DNA of 64,000 nucleotides from Bacteroidota bacterium (GTDB taxonomy: Bacteria; Bacteroidota; Bacteroidia; UBA4408), in NCBI GenBank assembly GCA_016721765.1, contig JADKHO010000002.1, positions 151,616 to 215,615 on the forward strand, written 5' to 3'. The notes beneath the pieces are model-generated. The model was not told the DNA's origin. It saw nothing but the letters and a program-made list of their open reading frames with translations, and did no database searches. The translations under genes and the position numbers were made by a program. Positions 31-15,665 of this stretch are shown here, piece after piece (the stretch's first letter is position 1; every line of letters begins with the position of its first letter).

Positions 31-993
31 ATGAACGAATTACAAAATAAACGCGCTGTGGCCGTCGGTTTCTTTGTCATCTTAGGAATAGTATTTCTGA
101 TTACAGGTGTACTAATGGTGGGAAATTTACATGAAACCTTTAAAAGGAAAATGAAGGTAGTTTCACTTTTTGATGATGTTAACGGTTTACAAACCGGTAA
201 TAATATCTGGTTTTCAGGTGTCAAAATTGGTACTGTAAGCAGTGTTCACTTCTATGGAAAATCACAAGTGGAAGTAATTATGAAAATCGAAACCAAAGCG
301 CAGCAATACATTCGAAAGGATGCTAAAGTAAAAATCAGCACCGATGGCCTTATTGGTAATAAAATATTGGTTATTTATGGAGGAACTTCCAAATCAAATG
401 AAGTGGAAGAGGGAGATACTTTGCTGGTGGAAAAAACTTTCTCTTCCGACGATATGATAAACACCTTGCAAGACAACAATAAAAATTTATTGGTGATAAC
501 AAACGACTTTAAAGTGATTAGTCATAATTTAGCAAACGGAACAGGTACGGTTGCAAAACTACTTAGTGATGATGCTGTTTATAACCAAATTAACGCAGCA
601 ACTGCTTCGTTGCAAGGGGCTGCCTCAAAAGCAAACCAGTTGCTGGTTTCCCTAAATGGATTTAGCTCAGGGTTAACCCGTAAAGGAACACTTGCAAATG
701 ATTTGGTAAGCGATACAATTGTCTTTAAATCATTAAAAGCTGCTGCTAGCCATATCGAACAACTTACCGATTCAGCAACAATGCTTGTTAGTAATTTGAA
801 AGCCAGCGAAAGAAATTCAAAAAGCGCCATCGGTATTTTATTGCACGATGAAGAAGCTGGAGCGAATTTAAAAGCCAGTTTGAAAAATTTGGAAAGCAGC
901 ACAAAAAAATTGGATCAAGATCTTGAGGCCGTGCAACACAATATTTTACTAAGACGATTCTTTAAATCAAAACCGGCAAGCAATGAAAAATAA
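31..993 (+). CDS. MlaD/MCE-domain protein (membrane-anchored lipid-transport component-like)
   Basis: 320-aa ORF with ATG start. N-terminal TM helix, then an MCE-type segment FDDVNGLQTGNNIWFSGVKIGTV, then a long helical tail. Overlaps the next ORF by 11 nt. Confidence 0.7.
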   Translation: MNELQNKRAVAVGFFVILGIVFLITGVLMVGNLHETFKRKMKVVSLFDDVNGLQTGNNIWFSGVKIGTVSSVHFYGKSQVEVIMKIETKAQQYIRKDAKVKISTDGLIGNKILVIYGGTSKSNEVEEGDTLLVEKTFSSDDMINTLQDNNKNLLVITNDFKVISHNLANGTGTVAKLLSDDAVYNQINAATASLQGAASKANQLLVSLNGFSSGLTRKGTLANDLVSDTIVFKSLKAAASHIEQLTDSATMLVSNLKASERNSKSAIGILLHDEEAGANLKASLKNLESSTKKLDQDLEAVQHNILLRRFFKSKPASNEK

Positions 994-1852
994 ATGGATA
1001 TGGATGCTACTAATTGTTTTAGTGCTTGTAATAGGTGCTGTAGGATACCTCTATTTTTTTAAAGATAAGCTTATAGCACGCTATATTCCTAAGCTGGAAC
1101 AAATTGGTGATCTTGAAATTAATGTGGGTGACGATACAACTTATATACACTCGAAACTCGTAATCGAAAATAATTCCTTTTTGAAAATTGGTGTGGATAC
1201 TATCAAATACCAAGTTTCCTTATTTAATAAAACCTATCTTAAAAGTCAAAGCTTTTTGGGAATTGTTTTGCCTCCAAATGGTAAGGATACATTTGAATTT
1301 TCATTAAAAATTCCTTACAAGGAAATTCTAAAAGATTTAAAAGCCGAACGAAAAAAAGGGGATAGTGCAAGCTATGCCATCCATGTATTTCTGCAATACT
1401 CCACCGTATTGGGTAAAGCGGAATTGCCAATTAATAAAGTTGCCAAGTTAAAGATTCCACAACCGCCCGAGCTCGAAATAGAAAACGTTAAATACACTAA
1501 AATTCGTTTCAAGAATATTGAAGCCAGTGCCAAAATCAAAATTATTAATTATGGTCCCATAACCTTGTCCATTAAGGAAATGGCTTATGTACTGGTAGTG
1601 CCAAATCAAGGTACACTAAAAGGCAAATACTTTGAAGCCATTAAAATAAAGCCATTTGGAACAACAGTTGTGACCCTTCCTATTAAAGTTACACTAAAGA
1701 ATATTTTTAGGACAGCCATCCAGGTGGCACGCAATAAAGATCAGTATGAATACAATTTAACCTTACTCGCCGTTCTTGAGCCCGAAGACTCCTTAAAAAA
1801 GCCCATTCGAATCCATCTCACCAAAATGGGAATTATGGAATTAAGAAAATAG
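983..1852 (+). CDS. membrane-anchored hypothetical protein (LEA_2/WHy-like beta repeats, weak call)
   Basis: 289-aa ORF overlapping the upstream stop, so likely in an operon. One N-terminal TM helix and a beta-rich repeated body. The family assignment is from memory only. Confidence 0.55.
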   Translation: MKNKWIWMLLIVLVLVIGAVGYLYFFKDKLIARYIPKLEQIGDLEINVGDDTTYIHSKLVIENNSFLKIGVDTIKYQVSLFNKTYLKSQSFLGIVLPPNGKDTFEFSLKIPYKEILKDLKAERKKGDSASYAIHVFLQYSTVLGKAELPINKVAKLKIPQPPELEIENVKYTKIRFKNIEASAKIKIINYGPITLSIKEMAYVLVVPNQGTLKGKYFEAIKIKPFGTTVVTLPIKVTLKNIFRTAIQVARNKDQYEYNLTLLAVLEPEDSLKKPIRIHLTKMGIMELRK

Positions 1853-1905
1853 CAGCAACTTTTTCTGCTCCTAGAATTATCTATCACTAAAGCAGTATTC
1901 CTAAA

Positions 1906-1973
1906 AGATAGGAATAATGTAAGCTTTCGATTTAATAGTATAAGTCAACACACATAATGTATTGGCAACTTTG
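1906..1973 (+). promoter_or_regulatory. tripartite promoter P(2005): AGATAGGAAT - N23 - TATAA - N26 - TTTG
   Basis: Upstream element at 1906, TATAA at 1939, TTTG at 1970. The 33/31-nt spacing is identical to five other promoters in this window. The upstream element is the weakest of the six. Confidence 0.45.
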
Positions 1974-2004
1974 CTCTATATTAATTAAAGCAAATTCTAA
2001 AACT

Positions 2005-2811
2005 ATGAAAAAATCAATGTTGATTCTTCTTCTTGCCTTAGCTGGAAGAATACAAGCACAAACACCGGAACTTATCACAAATGATAAAACCGGCTGGCAT
2101 AAAATTGTTGAAAAAAGTGTCGATTTAAAACGCGATCGCGATGAATTTACAATTCTAGGCGCAGATCGCTTTGCTTCATTAAAACTCTTTGTTAAGGATG
2201 TTCAATTATCAATTTACGATATGGAAGTTTATTTTGAAAATGGAACGAAACAAGTGATTGAAGTGCGCAGTCCTATAAAGGCCGGCGGAGAAAGCAAAAG
2301 CTTCGATTTAAAAGGCGTGGAGCGAGACATTAAAAAAATTGTACTCGTTTATAAAACTGAACCAAATCAAAAGGATGAAAAAGCTTCCATCGAAATTTGG
2401 GGAATGAAATCTAATGAAGCACCCAATAAATCTGCTGTTGAAATGCCGGGTATTGTTTTAAGCGACAAAAAAGGATGGCATAAAATAGGAGAACGAACAA
2501 TCAATTGGAAAATGGACCACGATGAAATTGTGGTGGTAGGTGCTGATAAATTTGCCTCCATTAAATTTATTGCTGTCTTTGCATCTATTGATATCAGAAG
2601 TATTGTGGTGCATTACGAAAGTGGAGATAATCAAAACATTACTATCTCAAATCCTATATTGATGGGTGCTGAAAGCAAAGTAATTGATTTAACCGGTGGA
2701 GAAAGGGCAATTAAAAAAATTGTATTTGAATACAAAACTATGCCCAATCGTAACGAAGAAAAAGCATTGGTAGAAGTATGGGGATATAAAACAAACACGG
2801 ATAAAAAATAA
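2005..2811 (+). CDS. secreted protein with two tandem DUF2541-like domains
   Basis: Start moved from the track ORF (1957) to ATG 2005, which lies downstream of the predicted promoter and gives the signal peptide MKKSMLILLLALAGRIQAQ. Two internal repeats: GWHKI..DRDE..GADRFASLK..YFENG..AGGESK..DLKG..IKKIVLVYKT..IEIWG. Confidence 0.7.
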   Translation: MKKSMLILLLALAGRIQAQTPELITNDKTGWHKIVEKSVDLKRDRDEFTILGADRFASLKLFVKDVQLSIYDMEVYFENGTKQVIEVRSPIKAGGESKSFDLKGVERDIKKIVLVYKTEPNQKDEKASIEIWGMKSNEAPNKSAVEMPGIVLSDKKGWHKIGERTINWKMDHDEIVVVGADKFASIKFIAVFASIDIRSIVVHYESGDNQNITISNPILMGAESKVIDLTGGERAIKKIVFEYKTMPNRNEEKALVEVWGYKTNTDKK

Positions 2812-2830
2812 TTTTTAATACCATAATAAT

Positions 2831-2867
2831 AAACCGCCCCACAGCAATTGGAGCGGTTTACTTTTTT
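2831..2867 (+). terminator. rho-independent terminator
   Basis: Stem AAACCGC/GCGGTTT followed by a T-run, directly after the stop at 2811. Confidence 0.6.
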
Positions 2868-2982
2868 GAATACAGTTGATGCGCTAAACTATTACTTAAA
2901 GCGCCTCCAAATATTCGCTTTAGCTACCTATTAGTATTTAACTTAAAAATTGTTGCCCGCTTCAACAGATTAAACCTAGAAT

Positions 2983-3426
2983 ATGAAAAATCTTATTTAT
3001 TGCTTTCTCTTTTCAATTACCCTGTGCAGCTCTTGTATTGTTCAATCGCCCAAGTATACCTCCCTCGACAAAGTGATGGAGCTTCAACTAGGTATGTCGA
3101 AAGACGAAGTTGAAAAAACTTTAGGATTGCAACCTTATGACTTAAAATCAGTCTCCGATACAGCTACTGTTTTCATTTATGTTTACCGTGTCACGGATCG
3201 TAAAACACTTTCAATAGATACCCAACCGGTGAATGGCCGTTCCGCATTGGGAAAATATATACAACTGGCTGTATCTTATTCAAAAGAGAATAAAGTAATC
3301 CACGTTGAATCATGCACGCTGTGTCCGGATAATTTATCCAATACAAAAAAATTAGACGTTCAAAAATTGATTGTTTTCTTAACAATCACCCTTCCTGTAA
3401 TTTTAGTTTTTATTGGTTTAAATTGA
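2983..3426 (+). CDS. lipoprotein with BamE/SmpA-OmlA-like segment and C-terminal TM helix
   Basis: 147-aa ORF. Signal peptide ending LCSSC (lipobox-like). LGMSKDEVEKTLGLQPYD resembles the SmpA/OmlA motif. Hydrophobic C-terminus LIVFLTITLPVILVFIGL. Confidence 0.55.
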   Translation: MKNLIYCFLFSITLCSSCIVQSPKYTSLDKVMELQLGMSKDEVEKTLGLQPYDLKSVSDTATVFIYVYRVTDRKTLSIDTQPVNGRSALGKYIQLAVSYSKENKVIHVESCTLCPDNLSNTKKLDVQKLIVFLTITLPVILVFIGLN

Positions 3427-3496
3427 TTTTCAGTTTATACTAAACTCATGCATTAAGCGTGCGTAAAGGCGTTCATGAATTTTCATTACAATTCAC

Positions 3497-3564
3497 ACCT
3501 GCGAATGTTACAAGAACAAAATAGAGTTCTGTAATGCAAAAGCTTCCCGAGCGCAGCACCTTTG
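3497..3564 (+). promoter_or_regulatory. tripartite promoter P(3610): ACCTGCGAAT - N23 - TGTAA - N26 - TTTG
   Basis: Upstream element at 3497, TGTAA at 3530, TTTG at 3561. The upstream element is the right half of the inverted repeat ATTCACACCTGCGAAT (3491-3506). Confidence 0.5.
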
Positions 3565-3609
3565 TCACAGAAAATTAAATCAAACTAATAATACTTAAAA
3601 CCTGAAATC

Positions 3610-4038
3610 ATGAAAAAAGTAACACTAATTGTAATGCTTGCCTTAGCAAGTGGATTAATGAATGCAAATGCACAAACACCTCAATTTTTAGTAAGCGATA
3701 AATGGGAGTGGTATAAAATTGCTGATAAAGTAGTTGGCGAAAATAAAAACCGTGACGAAATAATTGTTTCGGGCATCGAGCGATTTACAGCCATTAAAGT
3801 GGTGGTTAAGGAAGCAGAAATTAACATGTACGATTTAGAAGTTTCTTTTGCTGGCGGCAACGGACAAGTAATTGATATTAGCAGCGAAATGAAAGCAGGA
3901 ACCGAAAGTAAAGTGTATGGATTAGATAGCAGTAAAACTGACTTAACTAAGCTAACCTTTGCCTATGAAACGCTTAGCCCATTAGCAGATGAAAAAACTC
4001 AAATCGAAATTTGGGGACTTAGAACAATAAATGACTAA
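3610..4038 (+). CDS. secreted single-domain DUF2541-like protein (paralog of 2005..2811)
   Basis: 142-aa ORF. Signal peptide MKKVTLIVMLALASGLMNANAQ. Same domain pattern as 2005..2811: WYKI..NRDEI..GIERFTAIK..VSFAGG..AGTESK..LTKLTFAYET..IEIWG. Confidence 0.7.
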   Translation: MKKVTLIVMLALASGLMNANAQTPQFLVSDKWEWYKIADKVVGENKNRDEIIVSGIERFTAIKVVVKEAEINMYDLEVSFAGGNGQVIDISSEMKAGTESKVYGLDSSKTDLTKLTFAYETLSPLADEKTQIEIWGLRTIND

Positions 4039-4061
4039 TTACATTAAGTACATAAATTTAG

Positions 4062-4094
4062 AACCGCAGGATTTTGCTTGCGGTTTTTGTTTTA
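4062..4094 (+). terminator. rho-independent terminator
   Basis: Stem AACCGCA/TGCGGTT followed by TTTTGTTTT, after the stop at 4038. Confidence 0.55.
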
Positions 4095-4112
4095 TACTGA
4101 CCTGCTTGACTT

Positions 4113-4180
4113 ATCTGTGAATTATGTAACTTCTAGCTGCAATTGTATAATGGAATAGTAGCTGCCACATAGTTTCTTTG
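4113..4180 (+). promoter_or_regulatory. tripartite promoter P(4237): ATCTGTGAAT - N23 - TATAA - N26 - TTTG
   Basis: Upstream element at 4113, TATAA at 4146, TTTG at 4177. Confidence 0.5.
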
Positions 4181-4236
4181 CAAGTATAAAATGTGGTGGA
4201 ATTTTTTCAACACAGTAAAATTAAAAAACAGAACTT

Positions 4237-5112
4237 ATGAAAAATTACCTCCTTATTGCACTACTTGCAATTATGTTTTCTGCCTGCGAACAAGCGAAAT
4301 TAGATAAAGCCGCACTCGACAAAACTACTATTGAAAACGACTCTTTAAAATCAATTGTTTCAGATAGAGAAGCATCCATAAATGATTTTATTACCTCTTT
4401 TAATGATGTGGAACGCAACTTGGATTCGGTTACAGCACGCCAACATCTTATTTCTGTAAGCACCGACCAACAAGGTGATTTAAAACCTAGTCAGAGAACA
4501 CGAATTAATGAAGGCATTGCCTCTATAAATACATTAATGGAAGAAAACCGCAAGAAACTGGCTGAGCTAAAAAAGAAATTAAAAAATTCCTCTTACAAAA
4601 ATGCCGAACTGGCCAAAGCCATTGCCACAATTAACAATCAATTGGCACAAAAAGATGTAGAATTGACTGCCTTAAATGAAAAACTGTATAATTTAAATGC
4701 CCAGGTTAACGATTTGCAAACAGCTTTAAGTATCGTAACTGAAGAAAGCGCTGTTAAATCTCAAACCATTGCCGAAGAAACAATGGCTTTGCATACCGCA
4801 TACTATGTTATTGGTGAATCAAAAGAATTGCGCGATGCAAATTTAATCGATAGAAAAGGTGGTTTATTAGGCATGGGTAAAACAGCTAAACTCAGCCCTA
4901 ATATTGATAACAGCAAATTTATTCGCATTGATTATACACAAACCACCAGCATTGAAGTAAACAGCAATATGAAAATAATTACCGTGCATCCTGCCGATTC
5001 TTATGTATTGGATGCCGATGCAAAAAATAAAAAGAAGGTGAAAAATTTAACCATTACCAATCCTGAAAAGTTTTGGAGCGCTTCAAAATACTTAGTAATT
5101 CAAAAAGATTAA
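4237..5112 (+). CDS. coiled-coil lipoprotein, unknown function
   Basis: 291-aa ORF. Lipobox LAIMFSAC. Long K/E/L/N-rich helical region, then a globular C-terminal part. Confidence 0.65.
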   Translation: MKNYLLIALLAIMFSACEQAKLDKAALDKTTIENDSLKSIVSDREASINDFITSFNDVERNLDSVTARQHLISVSTDQQGDLKPSQRTRINEGIASINTLMEENRKKLAELKKKLKNSSYKNAELAKAIATINNQLAQKDVELTALNEKLYNLNAQVNDLQTALSIVTEESAVKSQTIAEETMALHTAYYVIGESKELRDANLIDRKGGLLGMGKTAKLSPNIDNSKFIRIDYTQTTSIEVNSNMKIITVHPADSYVLDADAKNKKKVKNLTITNPEKFWSASKYLVIQKD

Positions 5113-5219
5113 GCATACGCTGGCATTAGCCAACTGTTACTCTACTACTGTCAGTGAAAAACGAAAGAGTTAATTACAAATAGGCTTATTATCAAGACTT
5201 TTATAGTTGGTTTAGTTTT

Positions 5220-5252
5220 AGAGCCGTTGAAATTTCAACGGCTCTTTTTTTT
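5220..5252 (+). terminator. rho-independent terminator
   Basis: Perfect 13-bp palindrome AGAGCCGTTGAAA/TTTCAACGGCTCT followed by T8. Confidence 0.7.
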
Positions 5253-5335
5253 GAAGTCAACGCTCCTAAACCAGTTTGTAAGCTTATACTCAAGCGAAGT
5301 GTATCAGCATGGAAGCACATTTAAAGCGATACTTG

Positions 5336-5403
5336 AAGTGTGAATATTGATAATAAACACATTTTTAATGTAACACATTCCCGCACAACTTCACACACCT
5401 TTG
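5336..5403 (+). promoter_or_regulatory. tripartite promoter P(5427): AAGTGTGAAT - N23 - TGTAA - N26 - TTTG
   Basis: Upstream element at 5336, TGTAA at 5369, TTTG at 5400. Shares the extended -7 region CACCTTTGTCAC with P(3610). Confidence 0.5.
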
Positions 5404-5426
5404 TCACTTACTAATTCAAAATAAAA

Positions 5427-7013
5427 ATGAAATCAATTAAGTACAAACCGGGTTTTATGAACTTAAAACGAACTGGAAAAAAGCTTATAATTCTGACTGC
5501 ATGCATTGCATTCACGCTCAGTACAAAGGCACAAACAGAAGATAAAAAATGGAGCATTGGCTTGCACGGTGGCGCAAACCAGTACCAAGGCGATTTAGGG
5601 AAAGGTTTCTATAAAGGAAACCAAGCGCTTTATGGATTTGGAGGAATATCTTTTTCACGCTTTATCAATCGGCATTTAGATGCAAATTTGTTGTTTACCA
5701 AAGGAGAGCTTGGCTTTAAAGGCGATACCAGCAGTTTCCAAACCGGATTCTCAACAGTTACTGCTAACGTTCGCTTTAATATATTATCGTCCGATTATGT
5801 GGTTAGACCCTATTTATTTGTGGGTGCAGGTGCAATGCTATTTGCAGTGAATCCTACAGTTACTGATAAAAGTAAAATCGATTATGCGGCTCCTGATTTT
5901 GGGGTGGGTATCAATATTAGTTTAACCCCAACGGTTATGCTTAACCTGCAAGAAATGGTATTATACTCTACCGGTGATGGTAAAGATGGTGTGAACAAAG
6001 CCGGAAATGATGCCTACTTGCAACACATGGTTGGCTTGACTTTTAATTTTGGTAAGAAAAAAGATGCAGATATGGACGGTGTTTCTGATTCAAGAGATAA
6101 GTGTGCCAACACGCCTCCAAAAATTACAGTGGATAAAACAGGTTGCCCGCTTGATAAAGATAAAGATGGTGTAGCTGATTACTTGGATGCATGTCCGGAT
6201 GTAGCAGGTACTTTGGCGCTTAAAGGTTGCCCTGATAAAGATGGCGATGGAGTAGGAGATAAGGAAGACAATTGTCCGGATGAGAAAGGAACACTTGCTT
6301 TGAACGGTTGTCCCGATAAAGATGGTGATGATGTGGCCGATAAAGACGATCGTTGCCCGGATGCTTCTGGTAGCGCAGCTTTAAAAGGTTGCCCGGATAA
6401 AGATGGAGACGGTGTTGCCGATTTAGATGATAAATGTGCCGACACAAAAGCCGGTTACAAAGTAGATGCAACAGGTTGCACAAAAGATAACGACAACGAT
6501 GGTATTGTGAACGAAGAAGATGCTTGTCCGGATAAAGCAGGACCAATGGTTTTTAAAGGCTGTCCTGATACAGATGGCGATGGTGTTGCAGATAATGATG
6601 ACCGTTGTCCAACCATTAAAGGAACTATTAATAACAAAGGATGTCCTGAAATGGCAAAAGAAGATGTGAAAAAAATAACTCAAATTGCAAGCAAAATATT
6701 TTTCGAATTTGATAGCGATAAATTAAAAGTTGCATCCTTAGTACAACTGGATGAATTAGCTTCTATTTTGAAAAAATACGAAGGAGCAAACTTATTAGTT
6801 GGAGGCCATACCGATAGCGATGGCGAAGACGCATACAACATGACCCTTTCTCAAAAAAGAACCGAATCGGTTAAAACTTATTTAATGGGACAAGGCATTA
6901 TGGAATCGCGATTAACTGCAACCGGTTTTGGCGAAACACAACCCATTTCAGATAATAAAACTGCAATCGGTAAAGCGAAAAACAGAAGAGTAGAATTAAA
7001 GACTTCGTATTAA
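5427..7013 (+). CDS. OmpA-family outer-membrane protein with thrombospondin type-3 (TSP3) calcium-binding repeats
   Basis: 528-aa ORF. Signal peptide and N-terminal beta-barrel-like region. About ten D-x-D-x-D-G-V-x-D/CPD repeats. C-terminal OmpA_C motif (F.FDS..L......L..L...L........L.V.GHTDS.G....N..LS..R). Confidence 0.85.
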   Translation: MKSIKYKPGFMNLKRTGKKLIILTACIAFTLSTKAQTEDKKWSIGLHGGANQYQGDLGKGFYKGNQALYGFGGISFSRFINRHLDANLLFTKGELGFKGDTSSFQTGFSTVTANVRFNILSSDYVVRPYLFVGAGAMLFAVNPTVTDKSKIDYAAPDFGVGINISLTPTVMLNLQEMVLYSTGDGKDGVNKAGNDAYLQHMVGLTFNFGKKKDADMDGVSDSRDKCANTPPKITVDKTGCPLDKDKDGVADYLDACPDVAGTLALKGCPDKDGDGVGDKEDNCPDEKGTLALNGCPDKDGDDVADKDDRCPDASGSAALKGCPDKDGDGVADLDDKCADTKAGYKVDATGCTKDNDNDGIVNEEDACPDKAGPMVFKGCPDTDGDGVADNDDRCPTIKGTINNKGCPEMAKEDVKKITQIASKIFFEFDSDKLKVASLVQLDELASILKKYEGANLLVGGHTDSDGEDAYNMTLSQKRTESVKTYLMGQGIMESRLTATGFGETQPISDNKTAIGKAKNRRVELKTSY

Positions 7014-7033
7014 TTAAAAATTGATTTTTTATT

Positions 7034-7067
7034 AAAGGGATTGCCTGGCAAGGCAATCCCTTTTTTT
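7034..7067 (+). terminator. rho-independent terminator
   Basis: Stem AAAGGGATTGCCT/AGGCAATCCCTTT followed by a T-run, after the OmpA stop. Confidence 0.7.
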
Positions 7068-7182
7068 GTTTGTAAGCTCCATCAAAAATAAAAAGGAACA
7101 AACCTTTCCATTCCAAAGCTCAATTCAGTGTTTCAATCCATTGAATTTGATTCCGAAACAAGGCAAACAAATTAGTTTAATC

Positions 7183-7250
7183 ATCTGTGAATTATATAAA
7201 TAAATATGGTCGTAATATAATCCTTAAGATGCCCCTGTGCTCAATCTTTG
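7183..7250 (+). promoter_or_regulatory. tripartite promoter P(7271): ATCTGTGAAT - N23 - TATAA - N26 - TTTG
   Basis: Upstream element at 7183, TATAA at 7216, TTTG at 7247. Confidence 0.5.
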
Positions 7251-7270
7251 TTGAACCAAATTACACCAAT

Positions 7271-7444
7271 ATGAAAGCAAATAGAATCAGCTTAATTAAC
7301 GAGCTAAAAAATTATTCAAGCCAAACCGGCATCGAAAGAGCTGCGCAGCACAATGCAATTCAAAGCTGGGATGAATCCGCATCAATTATAAAAAAGGAAA
7401 TTTTGTTACGGCTATCCAAAACAAAAGAAATCAAATTATTATAA
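7271..7444 (+). CDS. small hypothetical protein (57 aa)
   Basis: The track ORF starts at GTG 7187, inside the promoter motif. ATG 7271 lies 21 nt after the TTTG box and is the likelier start. No recognisable domain. Confidence 0.35.
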   Translation: MKANRISLINELKNYSSQTGIERAAQHNAIQSWDESASIIKKEILLRLSKTKEIKLL

Positions 7445-7454
7445 CAGCTTTACG

Positions 7455-7844
7455 ATGTACAAATTATCACACCATGCCGAACGCATTTTTGAACGAGTAA
7501 CTTCCTTTGCAATAACAGTAATGGGTAACTCACTTACCTTTATTATTGCATGCATCAGCGTTATTTTTTGGCTTACGCAGAAGGATTTTTTTGACCAATC
7601 ACTACATGAGTGTATACACGAAGCGATAATTGGAATTACCTTTTTAAGCTTGTTTCTAATTCAAAAATCGTTCAACCGATTTTCCGCATCCCTACATTTA
7701 AAAGTAAATGAATTGGTATCCTCACACGAACCTGCCAGCAATGCCGTAATCGATACAGAGTTAAAAACCGAGCGAGAACTTACAAAACTGTCAAAAGAAT
7801 ACATCGAAATAACGGATACCTTAAAGAATACCCCACAGCCATAA
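7455..7844 (+). CDS. low-affinity iron permease (Fet4-like) family membrane protein
   Basis: 129-aa ORF with two TM helices. FLSLFLIQKSFNRFSASLHLKVNELV matches the FL.VFLIQN.QNRD..A..LKLDELI pattern of that family (from memory). Confidence 0.65.
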   Translation: MYKLSHHAERIFERVTSFAITVMGNSLTFIIACISVIFWLTQKDFFDQSLHECIHEAIIGITFLSLFLIQKSFNRFSASLHLKVNELVSSHEPASNAVIDTELKTERELTKLSKEYIEITDTLKNTPQP

Positions 7845-7941
7845 ATCCATCTTTAGAATGAATTGCAAATTAATAGAACAACAATTCGTCAAATCAAAAT
7901 TCAAGAATTCAACAAATCAAAATTCAAAAAATAAATTCCCC

Positions 7942-8009
7942 ATCTGTGAATGATGCAATTTAATCTTAGAGTTATATAACATTTACTACCTAGTATTCAC
8001 GGACTTTTG
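7942..8009 (+). promoter_or_regulatory. tripartite promoter P(8069): ATCTGTGAAT - N23 - TATAA - N26 - TTTG
   Basis: Upstream element at 7942, TATAA at 7975, TTTG at 8006. Confidence 0.5.
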
Positions 8010-8068
8010 CACCGCAATGCTACTATTGCACCTTGTTCGCAGGAAGCGAAAATCAAATAAAAAATACA

Positions 8069-8512
8069 ATGAAAATTTCAATTCTAACAATTTCAGTCGC
8101 ATCTATTATGTCAGTGATGCTAGTAAGCAGTTGCAGCAGTCCCGAAAAAAAGGTCGAAAATGCGCAAGAAAATGTAAACGATGCTAATGCAGATTTAGCA
8201 AAAGCAAATGATGAATACCTTGCAGATATTGAAACATACAAAAAAGTAACCGCCGATCAAATCGCACAAAATGAAAAGGAATTAGCTGCTTTCCGACTTA
8301 AAGTACGCGATGAAAAAGCTCAAGCTCGTGCCGATTACGATAAAAAAATTGCAGACCTGGAAGAAAAAAACAACAGCTTGAAGCAAAGAATGGCGGATTA
8401 CAAAGAAACTGGAAAAGACAATTGGAATTCATTTAAAAGCGAATTCAGTCACGACATGGACGAATTTGGTAAAGCATTCAAAGATTTAGGTGTAAATAAT
8501 GTGAAGAAATAA
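8069..8512 (+). CDS. coiled-coil lipoprotein, unknown function
   Basis: Start moved from TTG 8033 to ATG 8069, giving MKISILTISVASIMSVMLVSSC (lipobox). The rest is K/E/A/D-rich helical sequence. Confidence 0.65.
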   Translation: MKISILTISVASIMSVMLVSSCSSPEKKVENAQENVNDANADLAKANDEYLADIETYKKVTADQIAQNEKELAAFRLKVRDEKAQARADYDKKIADLEEKNNSLKQRMADYKETGKDNWNSFKSEFSHDMDEFGKAFKDLGVNNVKK

Positions 8513-8529
8513 TTAAAAAAAATAAAAAA

Positions 8530-9123
8530 ATGAAACCAGATGTAAAATGGAGTATTGATATCGCCCATAGTGAAGTTGAATTCAAAGTGCGTCACCTTAT
8601 GATTGCTCATGTAAAAGGAAAATTTAAAAATTTTGATGCCAGCATTTATACCACCGGAAAAGATTTTTCAACCGCTGTCATTGATTTTTGGATAGATGTA
8701 GCCTCCTTGGATACAGGCGACGACAAAAGAGATGAACATCTAAAGAGTGCTGATTTTTTTGACGCACACAAGCACAAACAAATCACCTTTGTTTCGAGCA
8801 CAATTGCACAAGCCGATGCGGATGGTAACCATGAACTTTGGGGCGAATTAAGCATGATGGGCATAACAAAAAACCAACTCCTAAACGTGCAGTTTGGTGG
8901 AATTACCAAAGACCCTTGGGGAAATGAAAAAGCCGGGTTTACAGTTACGGGCAAATTAAACCGAAACGACTGGGGCCTTGTTTGGAACACAGCCATGGAA
9001 ACAGGCGGCGTAGTGGTAAGCGATGAAGTGAAAATAACCTGCGAATTCGAATTAAAAAATGCCGGTACAATGGAAGAAACAATGGTGCTTGAATCAAGCC
9101 CTGATGCTAAAAACACATTTTAA
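8530..9123 (+). CDS. YceI-family polyisoprenoid-binding protein
   Basis: 197-aa ORF. VEFKVRHLMIAHVKGKF and DTGDDKRDEHLKSADFFD are typical YceI motifs. Lies 17 nt after the upstream gene, so likely in an operon. Confidence 0.8.
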   Translation: MKPDVKWSIDIAHSEVEFKVRHLMIAHVKGKFKNFDASIYTTGKDFSTAVIDFWIDVASLDTGDDKRDEHLKSADFFDAHKHKQITFVSSTIAQADADGNHELWGELSMMGITKNQLLNVQFGGITKDPWGNEKAGFTVTGKLNRNDWGLVWNTAMETGGVVVSDEVKITCEFELKNAGTMEETMVLESSPDAKNTF

Positions 9124-9137
9124 ACTAGAAAAAAAAC

Positions 9138-9557
9138 ATGAAACTAAAAAACAAATTTGCAATCCTCTGCATACTTCTTGCAGCTATAGTGATTCCTTCC
9201 ATTCAAAGTTGTCAGAAATATGACGACGGCCCTGCGTTAAGCCTCCGCTCGCGTGCTGCGCGTTTAGCCAATTCTTGGAAAATCGATAATTATAAAATTA
9301 ACGGCGATGATTACACGTCGCTCGTGGCAGGGTATACCGAAACATTTTCAAAAAGCGGATCCTATTCCTATTCATTTGGAATGCTTAACGGTGCGGGCAA
9401 CTGGACCTTTCAAAATAAAGATGAAGAAGTAAAACTAAATGGCGACGATGATCAATCCTCTCGCACCTTATTCATTAAAAAGCTGGAAGAAAAAGCGCTT
9501 TGGTATTACTATATGGACGGAAATGACAAGTACGAAGTACACTTAATTCCAAACTAA
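9138..9557 (+). CDS. lipoprotein, unknown function
   Basis: 139-aa ORF. Signal peptide ending IQSC. Beta-rich, lipocalin-size body. Confidence 0.6.
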   Translation: MKLKNKFAILCILLAAIVIPSIQSCQKYDDGPALSLRSRAARLANSWKIDNYKINGDDYTSLVAGYTETFSKSGSYSYSFGMLNGAGNWTFQNKDEEVKLNGDDDQSSRTLFIKKLEEKALWYYYMDGNDKYEVHLIPN

Positions 9558-9564
9558 ATTAAAC

Positions 9565-9921
9565 ATGCCCCTGTCAAAACTGAATTTATTTATTGTAGAT
9601 AGCGATATTCTTTCTGTAAAATTGTTGCGATCTTATCTTACACTTCGTTTCAACGAAGATGTGCAGGTAGCAAGCTTTTACAACAGTGCAAGTGCCTTAA
9701 AAAAAATTTCGCTAAACACTAATTTAGTCGTATTGGAAAATCACTTATTTCTTACAAAAGAACGTGAATTCATTGCTTTGATTAAGAAAATAAATTCAAA
9801 AGCGAAAGTAATTCAGCGGATCTCCAATGATGCGGTTGGTTTAGCTATTGAGCGCATCAATAGTAATGAAAGCAAATTAGAAAATAGAACAGTGCGTAAG
9901 TGGATTAAATTTTTCAACTAA
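9565..9921 (+). CDS. receiver-like (degenerate response-regulator) domain protein
   Basis: 118-aa ORF. LFIVDSD start resembles the REC acidic pocket, but the phospho-acceptor position reads LVVLENH (E, not D). No output domain. Confidence 0.45.
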   Translation: MPLSKLNLFIVDSDILSVKLLRSYLTLRFNEDVQVASFYNSASALKKISLNTNLVVLENHLFLTKEREFIALIKKINSKAKVIQRISNDAVGLAIERINSNESKLENRTVRKWIKFFN

Positions 9922-9983: not shown

Positions 9984-10652
9984 ATGTGCTTTTCAGCCCA
10001 AGCAAGCTTTACCGCCAGTGCAGTTTTAGCACTGGTAGGTATTGCTTCCGTCAAAAAGGTAAGCCTTCCGGCGCAAACAGCTTTCGCCTGCATTCCATTT
10101 CTATTCGCCTTTCAGCAATTCACTGAAGGTTTGCTCTGGCTTTCATTTACACATCCCGAATTTTCATACTTAAAATCAGCCAGCACCTATTCCTTTTTGA
10201 TTGTGGCCCAAATAATTTGGCCTACCTGGGTACCACTATCAATTCTGTTTCTCGAACAGAATATAAAACGAAAACGAGTGCTCACCTATATACTAAGTCT
10301 CGGTATACTACTTTCTCTTTACCTGAGCTATTGTTATATAATTTACCCAATACATGCCGAAATCAGCGGACACCATATCAAATACAATCTTGAATTTCCG
10401 CATACCCAAAATTTATTGTGGTTGAGTGCCTTTTTTTATTTTATTCCAACGGTGGTATCAACACTTGTGTCTAGTGTGAATCGGATGCAAATTCTAGGAA
10501 TTACAATTTTAACTTCATGCATTATAACACGCATCATAACACCAAAATATTTTATTTCTATTTGGTGCTTTTTTGCAGCTATCATAAGTGTTTTAGTACT
10601 AGTAATTTTGAAAGACTTAAAAAAATCAACAGAAAACTCAAGCTTGGTTTAA
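9984..10652 (+). CDS. polytopic membrane protein (DUF6629-like)
   Basis: 222-aa ORF with about six TM helices. The MCFSAQASF N-terminus is typical of that family (from memory). Confidence 0.55.
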   Translation: MCFSAQASFTASAVLALVGIASVKKVSLPAQTAFACIPFLFAFQQFTEGLLWLSFTHPEFSYLKSASTYSFLIVAQIIWPTWVPLSILFLEQNIKRKRVLTYILSLGILLSLYLSYCYIIYPIHAEISGHHIKYNLEFPHTQNLLWLSAFFYFIPTVVSTLVSSVNRMQILGITILTSCIITRIITPKYFISIWCFFAAIISVLVLVILKDLKKSTENSSLV

Positions 10653-10864: not shown

Positions 10865-12424
10865 ATGAAATATTGCTACTTAATTATCCAGCTTTTTCTC
10901 AGTATTGGAATTGCCTCTAATGTTCAGGCCAAAAAAAACAGCTCAGGTGTTGTTCCGGCTATCAGTATTGTAAGCAACGATGGTACCTACACGGAAGCTG
11001 TTGGTGGCCTATGTTTTAGTGTAAGCATTACAAATCCATTACCCGATACTACTTTTGTAGATGTGCAAATTGTGGCAAGTACCACCGGAACGCTCGGTAC
11101 CGATTTTACCATTGCACCTACTCGAATTAAGTTTTTACCCAATTTTGCCGGTAATGAATCTGTTTGTGTGAGCATATTCGAAGACCTCTTAGCCGAGCCA
11201 ATTGAGACCTACAGTTTTATGCTTGCAAACCCGAGTAACAATGCAACTCTAGGTGATTCTCTAATTAATTTTACCATTTATGACAACGACTCCATAACCA
11301 CTTCCAATCCTTGTTCCGACATATTTTTTTCAGAATTTGTGCATAGTTTTTCAGCTGGTGATAGAGCATTCGAATTGTATAATCCAACCGGCCAGGTGGT
11401 TGATTTATCAAATTATTCCATAAAAATTTATTTTGCCGGTAACACCGTTGCCGGAACCGATGTGCCATTATCCGGTTTTATAAATCATGGAGATACCTAT
11501 GTAATCAGTTATTCCGGCTCCGATTCAGCAGTAAAGGCAATTTCAGATTTGGTAAACGGACAGTTCTTCTTTAATGGAAACAGCGCAATTGGCTTATACC
11601 ACAATGCTACTTTAGTCGATTGCTTTGGCACAATAGGAGTGAACCCCGGCTTTGGCTGGCCGGTTTACAATGCAAATTCAACTTCGGCAACACTGGTGCG
11701 AAAACAAAATATCAAACAAGGTGAGTCAAACTGGAACAATTCAAATGGTCAATGGGATATATTTCCGCAAGCTGATTATTCTCACTTGGGTTCACACACC
11801 ATCAACGGCTGTGGTTTTATTGTGCCACCGACGGTCACCATGTTTACATCCGATGCTTCCTTTAATGAAGCAGTTGGCGGCTTAAGCATTAGTGTAAAGA
11901 TCTTTAATCCCCTTGCAGTTGCCACTACGGTGGATGTAGTTTTAGGTAATTTAACCACGGCTACACTCAACAGCGATTTTACTTTTACCCCATCACAGTT
12001 AACCTTCCCGGCAAATTCCACAGTTCCGCAATCCATTAGCATTTCTATTGTGGATGATTTAACAATTGAGCCGGATGAAATACTTGAACTCCGTCTTCAA
12101 AATGTAAGTGGTTCCGCTACAATATTAGATTCCAGTTGGGTGCTTACCATTCAAAACGACGATTTTACAGGAATCAGTGAAATCAAAACTTCCGCAACCC
12201 ACAACCTTCAACCAAATCCCGTAAAAGATATTTTAAAATTTACATCCAACAATAAAATTGATAGCTACCAAATTACAAATTTCCTTGGCCAAGTATATAA
12301 AGCTGAAACCAACATTAATTCATCACAACTCAATTTAAATTTACAAGATCTAAAACCGGGAATGTATTTTATTGTAGTAAAGGAGGGAACTAATAATTTC
12401 TGCAAACGATTTATCAAAGACTAG
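10865..12424 (+). CDS. T9SS-secreted protein: Calx-beta - lamin-tail domain (LTD) - Calx-beta - type-A C-terminal sorting domain
   Basis: 519-aa ORF with signal peptide. Two GTLGTDFT/ATLNSDFTF Calx-beta-like modules flank an LTD-like segment (FSEF...AFELYNPTG..VDLSNYSI). C-terminus is PNPVKD...LKPGMYFIVV...KRFIKD. Confidence 0.8.
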   Translation: MKYCYLIIQLFLSIGIASNVQAKKNSSGVVPAISIVSNDGTYTEAVGGLCFSVSITNPLPDTTFVDVQIVASTTGTLGTDFTIAPTRIKFLPNFAGNESVCVSIFEDLLAEPIETYSFMLANPSNNATLGDSLINFTIYDNDSITTSNPCSDIFFSEFVHSFSAGDRAFELYNPTGQVVDLSNYSIKIYFAGNTVAGTDVPLSGFINHGDTYVISYSGSDSAVKAISDLVNGQFFFNGNSAIGLYHNATLVDCFGTIGVNPGFGWPVYNANSTSATLVRKQNIKQGESNWNNSNGQWDIFPQADYSHLGSHTINGCGFIVPPTVTMFTSDASFNEAVGGLSISVKIFNPLAVATTVDVVLGNLTTATLNSDFTFTPSQLTFPANSTVPQSISISIVDDLTIEPDEILELRLQNVSGSATILDSSWVLTIQNDDFTGISEIKTSATHNLQPNPVKDILKFTSNNKIDSYQITNFLGQVYKAETNINSSQLNLNLQDLKPGMYFIVVKEGTNNFCKRFIKD

Positions 12425-12540
12425 CTTGAAAGAAAAATTTCATTTGCTTATCCTTAGTTTTACTTTGCTTGAGATATAAATATCACAACCAGTATTAATG
12501 ATGAATTGCCATCAATAAAGGCTTATTTAGTTTACTGAAA

Positions 12541-12722
12541 GGATCGGCCTATGAGAAATTGGCGTTAAGAAATTTGAATTCATTATTAAGCGTGGGCCTG
12601 TGTAAGCAATCCTCGAGCGAGAAAACATTTTTTTACTTAGCACTGACCACTTTCGAGCGCTTGGGTTGCGCGGCAATAATGAATTCAAATTTTAGCCAAT
12701 TTATCATCAGCCTTGATTTTTT
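12541..12722 (+). ncRNA. candidate structured RNA, array unit 1 (subtype A)
   Basis: Core runs GGATCGGCC...CAGCCTTGATTTTTT. Long closing helix, inner helix GCAATCC/GGGTTGC, apical hairpin, 3' U-run. Confidence 0.4.
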
Positions 12723-12840
12723 GCTTACTTTTTGATCAAGAAAAAAGTATGAAAATGACCATTGATAGTAGTATTCACCACCCTATAGAATCTATTCAAC
12801 TAAAAGCACGAAATCCCCAAATCACAATCATGAACGAAAA

Positions 12841-13024
12841 GGATCGGCCTATGAGAAATTGGCGTTAAGAAATTTGAATTCATTTTTATGCGCAGGCCTG
12901 TGTAAGCAATCCACGAGCGAGAAATGAAAGTATTTTCATTTAACAGAATATTGTCGAGCGGCTTGGGTTGCGTGTAAAAATGAATTCGAATTTTAGCCAA
13001 TTTATCATCAGCCTTGATTTTTTT
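12841..13024 (+). ncRNA. candidate structured RNA, array unit 2 (subtype B)
   Basis: Same architecture as unit 1. The CATTTTTA/TAAAAATG helix segment is compensatory relative to subtype A. Confidence 0.4.
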
Positions 13025-13131
13025 CTTACTTTTTGATCAAGCAAAAAAGTAAGAAAACATGCATGAAAACTCGCAAATAATAATGATATACAAAAAACGA
13101 AACCTAAAAAAACATCAATAAAATCCGAAAA

Positions 13132-13313
13132 AGACCGGCCTATGAGAAATTGGCGTTAAGAAATTTGAATTCATTATTAAGCGCGGGCCTGTGTAAGCAA
13201 TCCTCGAGCGAGAAAACAATTTTTTACTTAGCACTGACCACTTTCGAGCGCTTGGGTTGCGCGGCAATAATGAATTCAAATTTTAGCCAATTTATCATCA
13301 GCCTTGATTTTTT
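13132..13313 (+). ncRNA. candidate structured RNA, array unit 3 (subtype A)
   Basis: Near-identical to unit 1. Confidence 0.4.
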
Positions 13314-13431
13314 GCATACTTTTTTATCAAGAAAAAAGTATGAAAATGACCATTGATAGTAGTATTCACCTCCCGATAAAACCTAAGCAACAAAAAGAAC
13401 GAAATCCTAAAATCACAATCAAAACCGAAAA

Positions 13432-13615
13432 GGATCGGCCTATGAGAAATTGGCGTTAAAAAATTTGAATTCATTTTTAAGCGTTGGCCTCGTGTAAGCA
13501 ACCCTCGAGCGAGAAATGAAAGTATTTTCATTTAACAGAATATTGTCGAGCGGCTTGGGTTGCGTGTAAAAATGAATTCGAATTTTAGCCAATTTATCAT
13601 CAGCCTTGATTTTTT
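13432..13615 (+). ncRNA. candidate structured RNA, array unit 4 (subtype B)
   Basis: Near-identical to unit 2. The inner helix reads GCAACCC/GGGTTGC. Confidence 0.4.
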
Positions 13616-13722
13616 GCTTACTTTTTGATCAAGCAAAAAGTAAGAAAACATGCATGAAAACTCGCAAATAATAATGAGATACAAAAAACGAAACCTAAAA
13701 AAACATCAATAAAATCCGAAAA

Positions 13723-13904
13723 AGACCGGCCTATGAGAAATTGACGTTAAGAAATTTGAATTCATTTTTAAGCGCGGGCCTTGTGTAAGCAACCCTCGAG
13801 CGAGAAAAATCAATATTTTCCTTTTACTGAATTTATCGAGCGCTTGGGTTGCGTGTAAAAATGAATTCGAATTTTAGCCAATTTATCATCAGCCTTGATT
13901 TTTT
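13723..13904 (+). ncRNA. candidate structured RNA, array unit 5 (variant apical hairpin)
   Basis: Same helices. The apical region has a different sequence (GAAAA..TTTTC). One mismatch in the closing helix (TTGAC). Confidence 0.35.
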
Positions 13905-14022
13905 GCATACTTTTTGATCAAGAAAAAAGTATGAGAATGACTATTGCTAGTAGTGTTCACCTCCCGATAAAACCTAAGCAACAAAAAGCACGAAATCCTA
14001 AAATCATAATCATAAACGAAAA

Positions 14023-14206
14023 GGACCGGCCTATGAGAAATTGGCGTTAAGAAATTTGAATTCATTTTTATGCGCAGGCCTGTGTAAGCAATCCACGAGC
14101 GAGAAATGAAAATATTTTCTTTCAACAGAATATTATCGAGCGGCTTGGGTTGCGCGGCAAAAATTAATTTAAATTTTAGCCAATTTATCATCAGCCTTGA
14201 TTTTTT
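14023..14206 (+). ncRNA. candidate structured RNA, array unit 6 (subtype B, partly decayed 3' arm)
   Basis: The 3' arm reads AAAAATTAATTTAAATTTTAGCC, with two mismatches against the 5' arm. Confidence 0.3.
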
Positions 14207-14313
14207 GCTTACTTTTTGATCAAGCAAAAAGTAAGAAAACATGCATGAAAACTCGCAAATAATAATAAGATACAAAAAACGAAACCCTAAAAAACATCAT
14301 TAAAAACCGAAAA

Positions 14314-14550
14314 GGACCGGCCTATGAGAAATTAGCGTTAAGAAATTTGAATTCATTTTTAAGCGTAGGCCCTGTGTAAGCAACCCTCGAGCGAGAAACA
14401 AAAATATTCTCCAATTACGGAACAAAATCGAGCGCTTGGGTTGCGTGGCAATTAAGGCAAAGCCGAATCACGAATACCTTAAAAAATTAACACAATATGA
14501 GTAAAAATGAATTAAAATTTTAGCCAATTGCTCATCAGCCTTGATTTTTT
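14314..14550 (+). ncRNA. candidate structured RNA, array unit 7 (with ~53-nt hairpin insertion)
   Basis: Same ends as the other units. The insertion TTAAGGCAAAGCCGAATCACGAATACCTTAA... lies between the inner helix and the 3' arm. Confidence 0.3.
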
Positions 14551-14720: not shown

Positions 14721-15104
14721 TTAAGCTTCGCTCAATACCATTTTAAAAGGAATGTTAATAATGGCTTGATAATCTTCGCCTGCTTCTAACATATCCTCAT
14801 CATCCTCTTCATAATGCCAGTTAATAATAACCTCACTACTTCCGCCTTTGTGAATACTCTCAAGTTTTTTAAATACGTCCAAAATACACTTCGAAGAACT
14901 GGTATTAAAGTACTCCAAATGAATATTCACATTTGTATTCTTTTGTGGCTTGCCCGAGTATTTATCCAACCAGTCTACAAGCGGTTTGTAAAACTCAATC
15001 GAGTTTTCAGGGATCGATCTCCCTTTAATTTCTAAATATCCTTTATCCCAATCAAATTTAATAGTAGGCGTTTTGGGTGAACCTTCAATTAGCAGTGTTT
15101 CCAT
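14721..15104 (-). CDS. DUF1987 / SiaC-family partner-switch phosphoprotein
   Basis: 127-aa ORF. IEGSPKTPTIKFDWDKGYLEIKGRSIPENSIEFYKPLVDWL is the typical DUF1987 N-terminus. Confidence 0.75.
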   Translation of the reverse strand: METLLIEGSPKTPTIKFDWDKGYLEIKGRSIPENSIEFYKPLVDWLDKYSGKPQKNTNVNIHLEYFNTSSSKCILDVFKKLESIHKGGSSEVIINWHYEEDDEDMLEAGEDYQAIINIPFKMVLSEA

Positions 15105-15113
15105 AGTATTTAA

Positions 15114-15665
15114 TTATTGTGAGATTTTAATGTTCAAACTAAAAAATGAATATTTATCATCCGCCACCATAAAATTATAGTTCAGCTTCTGACCTGATTT
15201 ACGCGCAATGTCTATCATTCCCAAGCCTCCTCCGCCTTTTTCAGAGAAAGTATCGTTGTTTAATATTTCTTTATAGTACTCTTTTAACTCCTCTTTACTC
15301 ATCTCATTTATCTTGTCTAATTTTACTCTGAGATTTTCAACGTTCGAAGTTAAGATATAATTTCCGGTAATAATGCTGTATTCATTCTCCACCTTACCTA
15401 TCATAAAAATGGCCGAACGAGAAACAATTTCATTCGTGTCATCCGTAAAGGCAACTTCATCCATGTGGTGATACAAATTCTGCAAACACTCCACCAACAC
15501 ATTATACACTTTCTTCTTAACTTTTGGCTCCTCCTGCAAATTATCCAACTTGGATTCCATAATTTGCAATATAGACGTCAGCAATTCGGAGGTGATATCA
15601 CCTTTAAATGAAAGCATAATTTTATTACGATCCATTTTATCGTAAAAATCATAAATATCAACCAT
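15114..15665 (-). CDS. SiaB-family (RsbW-like) protein kinase
   Basis: 183-aa ORF 9 nt upstream of the DUF1987 gene. MLSFKGDIT...NVLVECLQNLYHH...GGGGLGMIDIARKSG is a HATPase-like G-box. Confidence 0.7.
   Translation of the reverse strand: MVDIYDFYDKMDRNKIMLSFKGDITSELLTSILQIMESKLDNLQEEPKVKKKVYNVLVECLQNLYHHMDEVAFTDDTNEIVSRSAIFMIGKVENEYSIITGNYILTSNVENLRVKLDKINEMSKEELKEYYKEILNNDTFSEKGGGGLGMIDIARKSGQKLNYNFMVADDKYSFFSLNIKISQ

Follow-up and report, generated by a model that had tools for sequence, protein, structure and literature searches.

Tandem-repeat promoters ahead of stress and envelope genes in Bacteroidota, with a small AraC-family protein as their candidate activator

AraC at araI1-I2 has the same tandem direct-repeat layout as XylS at the Pm promoter. 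XylS recognizes a pair of 15-bp direct repeats (box A, N6, box B) that overlap the polymerase site (PMC5481539). Six promoters in a 64-kb stretch of Bacteroidota DNA (the window; positions count from its first letter) display a similar arrangement, and we consider it probable, though well short of certain, that they are activator-dependent sigma-A promoters bound by a small protein of the AraC/XylS family and driving a phylum-wide set of stress and envelope genes. The features in common with XylS at Pm and AraC at araI1-I2 are 15-bp direct repeats (box A, 5 to 6 bp, box B) with a 6-bp gap and a 21-bp period, the lack of a good -35 element, and a candidate binding protein with a seven-helix, double helix-turn-helix (HTH) AraC domain. 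The proximal repeat of those systems abuts or overlaps the -35 region, as it would here too if transcription starts where predicted. Unlike those systems, the promoters in the window have a Bacteroidota -7 box, a repeat of the form TGTG-N5-TGTAAC, and stress and envelope genes rather than catabolic genes downstream, and the N terminus of the candidate, about 65 amino acids (aa), adopts a predicted fold like that of heavy-metal-associated (HMA) domains, not a cupin or sugar-binding domain.

An earlier note on this DNA had described a signature of three elements ahead of six genes, comprising a distal element, a TRTAA 33 nucleotides (nt) from its first base, and a TTTG 31 nt further on. All six sets occur at the claimed coordinates with identical spacing, but the note had overlooked a further TGTAA(C) box within the distal element (positions 13 to 18), which turns the signature into a 21-bp direct repeat. 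The pattern GAAT-N23-TRTAA-N26-TTTG has exactly 6 matches in the 64 kb, all on the + strand and all inside 1906-8009, against a chance expectation of 0.02 in dinucleotide shuffles of the window; a longer consensus with up to 3 mismatches allowed recovers the same six sites only (0.00 expected). With a 77-column weight matrix whose training sites all came from other genomes, the six score 26 to 53 bits, the next-best position in the window -3.4, and the best shuffle 5.4. The sites at 1906 and 5336 fall within this range despite not matching the pattern with which the training set was collected. Pairwise identity among the six is 67% in the boxes and 27 to 34% in the spacers and flanks, where 27% is expected at random, indicating that the sites are not duplications of one another, in line with the earlier note. 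The six promoters are as follows.

1905..1973, + strand: promoter 1; distal half-site 1909-1923 (TagGAATaATGTAAg), a distal box more degenerate than the other five; proximal half-site 1930-1944, core TATAAg at 1939-1944; -7 box 1966-1973 (gcAaCTTTG); predicted start near 1978; 27.5 bits.
3496..3564, + strand: promoter 2; distal half-site 3500-3514; proximal half-site 3521-3535, core TGTAAt; -7 box 3557-3564 (gcAcCTTTG); predicted start near 3569; 38.6 bits.
4112..4180, + strand: promoter 3, just 3' of a terminator at 4060-4087; distal half-site 4116-4130 (TGTGAATTATGTAAC, a perfect match); proximal half-site 4137-4151 (AATTgTATAAt); -7 box 4173-4180; predicted start near 4185; 39.3 bits.
5335..5403, + strand: promoter 4, 3' of a terminator at 5220-5245; distal half-site 5339-5353; proximal half-site 5360-5374, core TGTAAC; -7 box 5396-5403 (acAcCTTTG); predicted start near 5408; 26.2 bits.
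7182..7250, + strand: promoter 5, 3' of a terminator at 7034-7063; distal half-site 7186-7200; proximal half-site 7207-7221, core TATAAt; -7 box 7243-7250 (caAtCTTTG); predicted start near 7255; 29.6 bits.
7941..8009, + strand: promoter 6; distal half-site 7945-7959; proximal half-site 7966-7980 (gTTaTATAAC); -7 box 8002-8009 (ggActTTTG); predicted start near 8014; 53.1 bits, the best score in the window.

A start codon follows each site at 20 to 59 nt. Terminator-like hairpins occur at the three positions given above, and a hairpin with a T-run lies at about 2832-2866; the six sites are predicted to head separate transcription units, each preceded by a terminator-like hairpin of the preceding gene. 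The window also contains TAnnTTTG promoters and a type IX secretion sorting-domain protein (10865-12424), and its canonical TAnnTTTG promoters are devoid of the repeats, in agreement with the earlier note.

When sites are chosen by one half of the matrix and the other half is read out, the resulting unbiased consensus is AATGTGTGAATnATGTAAC-tttTt...a.-aaTTnTGTAACa-N21-AnCTTTG. Columns that had been left free in the search pattern are conserved as well, namely the second TGTAAC, AAT(T), and A(-11), and the direct repeat AATnnTGTAAC is found at exactly 21 bp by selecting on either half alone. The distal copy is a 15-bp unit, TGTG-N5-TGTAAC, followed by the 6-bp gap, and the proximal copy retains AAT(T)n-TGTAAC. 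The complete design extends over about 70 bases, with a rigid spacing to the downstream box, nAyCTTTG.

The -7 box of sigma-A promoters in Flavobacterium psychrophilum, TAnnTTTG, covers positions -12 to -5 (PMC9723704). Among sites chosen by their repeats alone, the downstream box has A(-11) in 82%, T(-8) in 99%, T(-7) in 98%, T(-6) in 73%, and G(-5) in 53% of cases, with a preference for pyrimidines (C/T) at -10 and -9, but T(-12) in only 24%, and there is no TTG at -33. The sites therefore depart from the canonical sigma-A promoter (-7 TAnnTTTG plus -33 TTG) in that T(-12) is not conserved, C/T occupies -10 and -9, and TGTAAC at -39 to -34 takes the place of the -33 TTG, although they share with it A(-11), TTTG at -8 to -5, and the usual distance of 16 to 59 nt from the start codon. 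The proximal box had previously been read as nCTTTG rather than TAnnTTTG; the loss of T(-12) is borne out, but the conserved A of TAnnTTTG had been missed. Judged by its retained positions, the downstream box is a putative degenerate variant of the sigma-A -7 box. By analogy with sigma-A promoters, transcription would start about 5 nt after TTTG, which would place the centers of the repeats near -62.5 and -41.5 and the proximal TGTAAC at -39 to -34. An activator had been proposed at about -64, and its upstream position agrees with this numbering, but that site would not be the only one, given the second at about -41.5. The geometry, as placed by this analogy, would be that of class II activation by AraC/XylS proteins.

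To gauge how widely the design occurs, one genome per species (185,579 species) was scanned with a strict pattern of about 19.5 specified bases, for which we estimate a few to a few tens of chance matches over all bacteria. At least 120 loci match. The record titles of 118 of the 120 loci listed name Bacteroidota, the others include one Ignavibacteria and one "FCB group", and the Bacteroidota matches listed include Chitinophagales, Saprospiraceae, Sphingobacteriales, Cytophagales, Flavobacteriales, and environmental Bacteroidales. Among the matches listed, the motif is restricted to Bacteroidota and close relatives. Of 127 foreign sites, 119 are followed by the start of an open reading frame (ORF), the median distance being 38 nt, and this figure, like the family counts that follow, refers to the matches listed. 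The downstream Pfam families are type IX secretion-tail proteins (8), OmpA (7), CsbD (6), ice-binding-like proteins (6), AI-2E transporters (4), single-domain receivers (4), Usp (3), DUF4142 (3), and M48 peptidases (3), together with beta-barrel outer membrane proteins, DUF2383, Gly-zipper, and DUF748/AsmA; YceI, BON, YtxH, and MlaE were also recognized by sequence among the downstream genes. Clustering of all ORFs in the matched loci shows that YtxH, MlaE/F/D, and an sll1863-like lipoprotein recur.

In gene content, the putative regulon is that of a general stress and envelope response. The earlier suggestion of a dedicated envelope or stress regulon gains support from this distribution, in which the same design precedes such genes in more than 100 other Bacteroidota genomes. 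The regulons of sigma-B in Bacillus, sigma-S in Escherichia coli, and EcfG-PhyR in Alphaproteobacteria likewise contain CsbD, YtxH, Usp, OmpA-like, Gly-zipper, BON, DUF4142, and YceI proteins and include signaling proteins among their members. They differ from the present case in that the element here looks like an activator site, with no linked sigma or anti-sigma gene found.

Within the window, the earlier gene annotations hold (two DUF2541 proteins, coiled-coil lipoproteins, a TSP3 OmpA protein, a small ORF with a permease, YceI, a lipoprotein, and a receiver-like protein). The genes downstream of the six sites, and the operon that ends just before the first of them, are as follows.

2005..2811, + strand: target 1, an exported DUF2541 protein; the start at 2005 is preferred to the ORF start at 1957 because the latter falls within promoter 1.
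3610..4038, + strand: target 2, an exported DUF2541-like protein, weak in the Pfam scan, with DUF2541 recorded for the same protein.
4237..5112, + strand: target 3, a coiled-coil lipoprotein of the Cbp1 family.
5427..7013, + strand: target 4, an outer membrane beta-barrel with TSP_3 repeats and an OmpA domain; homologs stand behind the same motif in two other loci (L119 and L120).
7271..7844, + strand: target 5, a 57-aa ORF (7271-7444) and an Iron_permease (PF04120) protein (7455-7844).
8069..9921, + strand: target operon 6 (extent inferred), with an sll1863-family coiled-coil stress lipoprotein (8069-8512), YceI (8530-9123), a lipoprotein (9138-9557), and a receiver-like protein (9565-9921).
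31..1852, + strand: MlaD (31-993) and LEA_2 (983-1852), the 3' end of an operon, DUF748-like/MlaE/MlaF/MlaD/LEA_2, whose first genes precede the window.

Homologs of several of these products, namely MlaD, OmpA-TSP3, Iron_permease, the sll1863-family lipoprotein, and YceI, again lie 3' of sites in other lineages. The Mla/LEA_2 operon is a probable further member of the regulon. A contig that overlaps positions 1-1730 of the window (L204) adds 2.5 kb upstream and shows genes of this operon; no motif site occurs in those 2.5 kb, and the promoter of the operon lies more than 2.5 kb upstream of the window start. A DUF6629 gene at 9984-10652 may belong to operon 6. The receiver-like protein of operon 6 has an apparent Glu at the position of the phospho-acceptor Asp (LVVLENHL), as judged by eye; the receivers used for comparison, such as one with IVILDY in locus L113, are single-domain proteins that are likewise encoded behind motif sites.

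Clustering of ORFs in the motif loci singles out a protein of 179 to 187 aa with an HTH_18 domain, which is present in 13 of the 120 loci listed and often directly beside the site, whereas any single-copy gene would be expected by chance, on our estimate, in well below one locus. An independent sample, consisting of 80 metagenome loci (603 kb) fetched by this protein alone and scanned with the matrix, contains 164 sites of at least 15 bits, and a site is present in 50 of the 54 loci that are at least 3 kb long. Sites are densest within 500 bp of the AraC-like gene, at 11 per 10 kb, and thin out to about 1 per 10 kb at 7 to 10 kb from it; the window outside its six sites has none. In 31 of the 80 loci, the distal box overlaps the stop codon of the AraC-like gene, with AAT GTG TGA read as Asn-Val-stop (for example, L202 10532-10540), such that the C terminus of the regulator and the next promoter share bases. 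A site lies 45 to 62 nt upstream of the regulator ATG in about 8 loci, suggesting autoregulation of the AraC-like gene, and a divergent site lies just upstream in about 13 loci. The top gene clusters near sites are cupins, PAS kinases, CsbD, and receivers, and neither the 120 motif loci listed nor the 80 regulator loci show enrichment of another DNA-binding family near sites. The upstream activator that had been postulated thus finds support, the distal element being a putative protein-binding half-site and an AraC-family gene being tightly linked to the motif.

The C terminus of the candidate matches HTH_18 (1.6e-16) and HTH_AraC (3e-9) in Pfam and comprises a double HTH domain of about 100 aa. 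Its profile matches in PDB are YesN, XylR, and SoxS, and a structural model (predicted local distance difference test score of 82) retrieves AraT, AdpA, MarA, and AraC in Foldseek, with target-normalized template modeling scores of 0.69 to 0.82; the modeled C-terminal domain superposes on the DNA-binding domains of MarA, SoxS, AdpA, and AraC. The N-terminal 65 aa or so have no Pfam match. Their predicted fold, beta-alpha-beta-beta-alpha-beta, bears a weak resemblance to the HMA domain, and residues S3, R5, C6, and K7 (S-x-x-C) are invariant. The protein is 58 to 69% identical across orders, which agrees with the near-invariance of the motif. It occurs in more than 8,000 sequence clusters, all generically named, and there is no NCBIfam equivalog for it.

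Two kinds of genes recur beside that of the candidate. The commonest gene immediately after the AraC-like gene (27 of 80 loci) encodes a stand-alone cupin-like protein of about 115 aa and lies on the same strand, behind a motif site (L144 11196-11540; also L084 and L009); the protein might be a detached sensor or modulator of the regulator. Large CheB/CheR-PAS-HisKA kinases, kinases of about 250 aa, and single-domain receivers also recur beside the AraC-like gene and motif sites (L009, L032, L038, L065, L099, L116, and L121, plus 14 of the 80 metagenome loci), suggesting a phosphorelay input.

Under the activator model, two copies of the AraC-like protein, about 180 aa each, would bind the repeats spaced by 21 bp. 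The promoter-proximal copy would substitute for the -33 contact and recruit the sigma-A polymerase, as XylS does at Pm and AraC at araI1-I2, to a promoter that would otherwise be too weak because it has no -33 element and no T at -12. Such promoters would be expected to be silent without an activating signal, leaving the regulon off by default. Speculative sources of that signal are a relay from the adjacent histidine kinase and single-domain receiver, the conserved cysteine, and the cupin.

Several points weigh against this reading. The window contains no homolog of the regulator in its 64 kb (tblastn), nor is there one in the 2.5 kb upstream (L204), and the linkage of the AraC-like gene to the motif could mean mere membership in the regulon. 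The assignments to -62.5, -41.5, and -11 all rest on analogy with sigma-A promoters. The conserved box A is absent from the proximal repeat, and the systematic loss of T(-12) could instead indicate a different sigma specificity. Moreover, the pattern that served to collect both the first sample and the sites behind the matrix came from the window itself, which makes the conservation of some columns a product of the selection.

The alternative that survives best retains the same promoters and regulon but has another transcription factor bind the repeats, with the AraC-like gene a conserved member of the regulon or island. The linkage is guilt by association only, and the AraC-like gene itself often has the motif upstream, as would be expected of any member of the regulon. 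Direct repeats spaced at 21 bp are typical of LytTR regulators such as AgrA and ComE, which have two of them upstream of a promoter lacking a -35 element, and a LytTR two-component system is encoded in the window at 57442-59222 (a His_kinase protein, PF06580, paired with a LytTR response regulator and located 50 kb away from the six promoters). We nevertheless regard this alternative as unlikely. Other DNA-binding families are not enriched in either sample, and site density peaks at the AraC-like gene; furthermore, the 15-bp unit, the 6-bp gap, and the predicted overlap with the -35 region constitute AraC/XylS geometry. A LytTR regulator in particular was rejected, since its period fits but its 9-bp consensus is unlike the repeat here and no LytTR gene is linked to the sites. 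Two further families were considered and set aside. A CRP-like palindrome (TGTGA-N6-TCACA, compared with TGTGA-N6-TAACn in the distal box) has a right half that is not palindromic here, and the proximal repeat has no TGTGA; for OmpR/PhoB repeats, which have a period of 10 to 11 bp, the TGT...TGT spacing in the distal box is 9 bp, with no matching periodicity.

An alternative sigma factor, as proposed in the earlier note, would read TGTAAC as a -35-like element and AnCTTTG as a -10-like element, with the activator optional. The low incidence of T(-12), which is highly conserved in sigma-A promoters, the lack of a -33 TTG, and the rigid spacing speak for it; -35 boxes containing AAC are typical of extracytoplasmic function (ECF) sigma factors, and general stress regulons elsewhere are sigma driven. 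Yet AATnnTGTAAC recurs 21 bp upstream, beyond the binding of a sigma factor, and TRTAA, as the second copy of a repeat, argues for a factor bound twice and not for a -35 equivalent. The gap from AAC to the downstream box, 21 to 24 nt, is overlong for ECF promoters (16 to 17 nt), and nothing is conserved at 16 to 17 nt. A(-11) and TTTG remain at their sigma-A positions, and ECF-like genes are at background, in 2 of the 120 motif loci listed and 1 of the 80 regulator loci. This explanation is consequently not supported, and we hold it to be improbable, even more so than a different repeat-binding factor. ECF promoters were rejected on the same grounds: a -10 element such as CGT is not conserved at the distance they use, and the sites have neither a sigma nor an anti-sigma gene linked to them. 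The consensus of about 160 sites also contains no GG-N10-GC element (TGGCAC-N5-TTGC, at -24/-12) of sigma-54 promoters. In one metagenome locus (L166), an ECF-type sigma gene at 1847-2448 lies directly 3' of a motif site, which could mean that regulation in that organism runs as a cascade.

A structured RNA leader or riboswitch, chance, or a recent duplication is very hard to credit, since the GTGAAT...ATTCAC complementarity seen by eye at a few sites stands against the lack of any Rfam match at the gathering threshold (permissive thresholds give only weak matches at terminators), a mean folding energy over 153 sites of -9.2 kcal/mol versus -9.3 in shuffles, the lack of conservation between the boxes, and the shuffle expectation of 0.02.

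Bacteroidota are not known to have RpoS, sigma-B, or EcfG. Full-text literature searches returned no account of what coordinates the general stress response in this phylum and no description of the motif or the regulator subfamily. Activation from tandem repeats by AraC/XylS proteins is a known class of mechanism; the subfamily, the motif, and the phylum-wide regulon appear to be undescribed. The design of the six sites may mark the long-missing general stress regulon of the phylum. A broader version of the activator model can be offered tentatively, at somewhat less than even odds: Bacteroidota and relatives such as Ignavibacteria and Kapaibacteria would place a general stress or dormancy-type regulon under one highly conserved mini-AraC protein with an HMA-like S-x-x-C sensor domain instead of an alternative sigma factor, with the activator perhaps fed by PAS/CheBR kinases and single-domain receivers and partnered by the cupin, and with the regulon silent under standard laboratory stresses.

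A possible instance of such silence is found in F. psychrophilum OSU THCO2-90, where an island spanning THC0290_1129-1210 includes a gene for a 179-aa AraC protein (PMC9723704 Tables S2 and S4). Its neighbors include a small hypothetical protein, a single-domain receiver, a permease, YihY, a 541-aa peptidoglycan-binding protein, UspA, and an MlaEFD-like transporter (PMC9723704). Genes of the island predominate among those with weak expression in each of the 32 conditions (PMC9723704 Table S4), and the roughly 50 kb of the island (1.337 to 1.387 Mb) have almost no mapped starts (PMC9723704 Table S2), with no high-confidence start within these coordinates in the start-site table. Matched by gene descriptions and not by sequence, the island is probably the same regulon, silent in the laboratory, and the regulon may account for this silent stretch in transcriptomics.

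The analysis provides a precise cis element whose weight matrix puts more than 25 bits between true sites and background, a regulator family named as the candidate for Bacteroidota stress and envelope promoters, and a conserved list of targets (CsbD, YtxH, Usp, YceI, OmpA-TSP3, MlaEFD-LEA_2, AI-2E transporters, ice-binding-like proteins, and single-domain receivers). Together, the motif, candidate, and targets make the question testable in tractable strains of Flavobacterium or Chitinophaga, and dozens of exported families of "unknown function" would be given a regulatory context. An activator-dependent promoter that would be tightly off could also serve as a genetic tool for Bacteroidota.

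Two other features of the window lie beyond the promoter cluster. A tandem array at 12538-14447 consists of 6.5 copies of a 291-bp unit with 80% identity; it occupies a 1.4-kb stretch without an ORF of at least 110 aa, between the type IX secretion protein gene and a SiaC/DUF6272 pair, and has no meaningful Rfam match. The pair itself, at 14721-15665 on the - strand and about 5 kb from the promoter cluster, comprises a SiaC-family regulatory phosphoprotein (PF09345) beside DUF6272 and looks like a partner-switch signaling pair.

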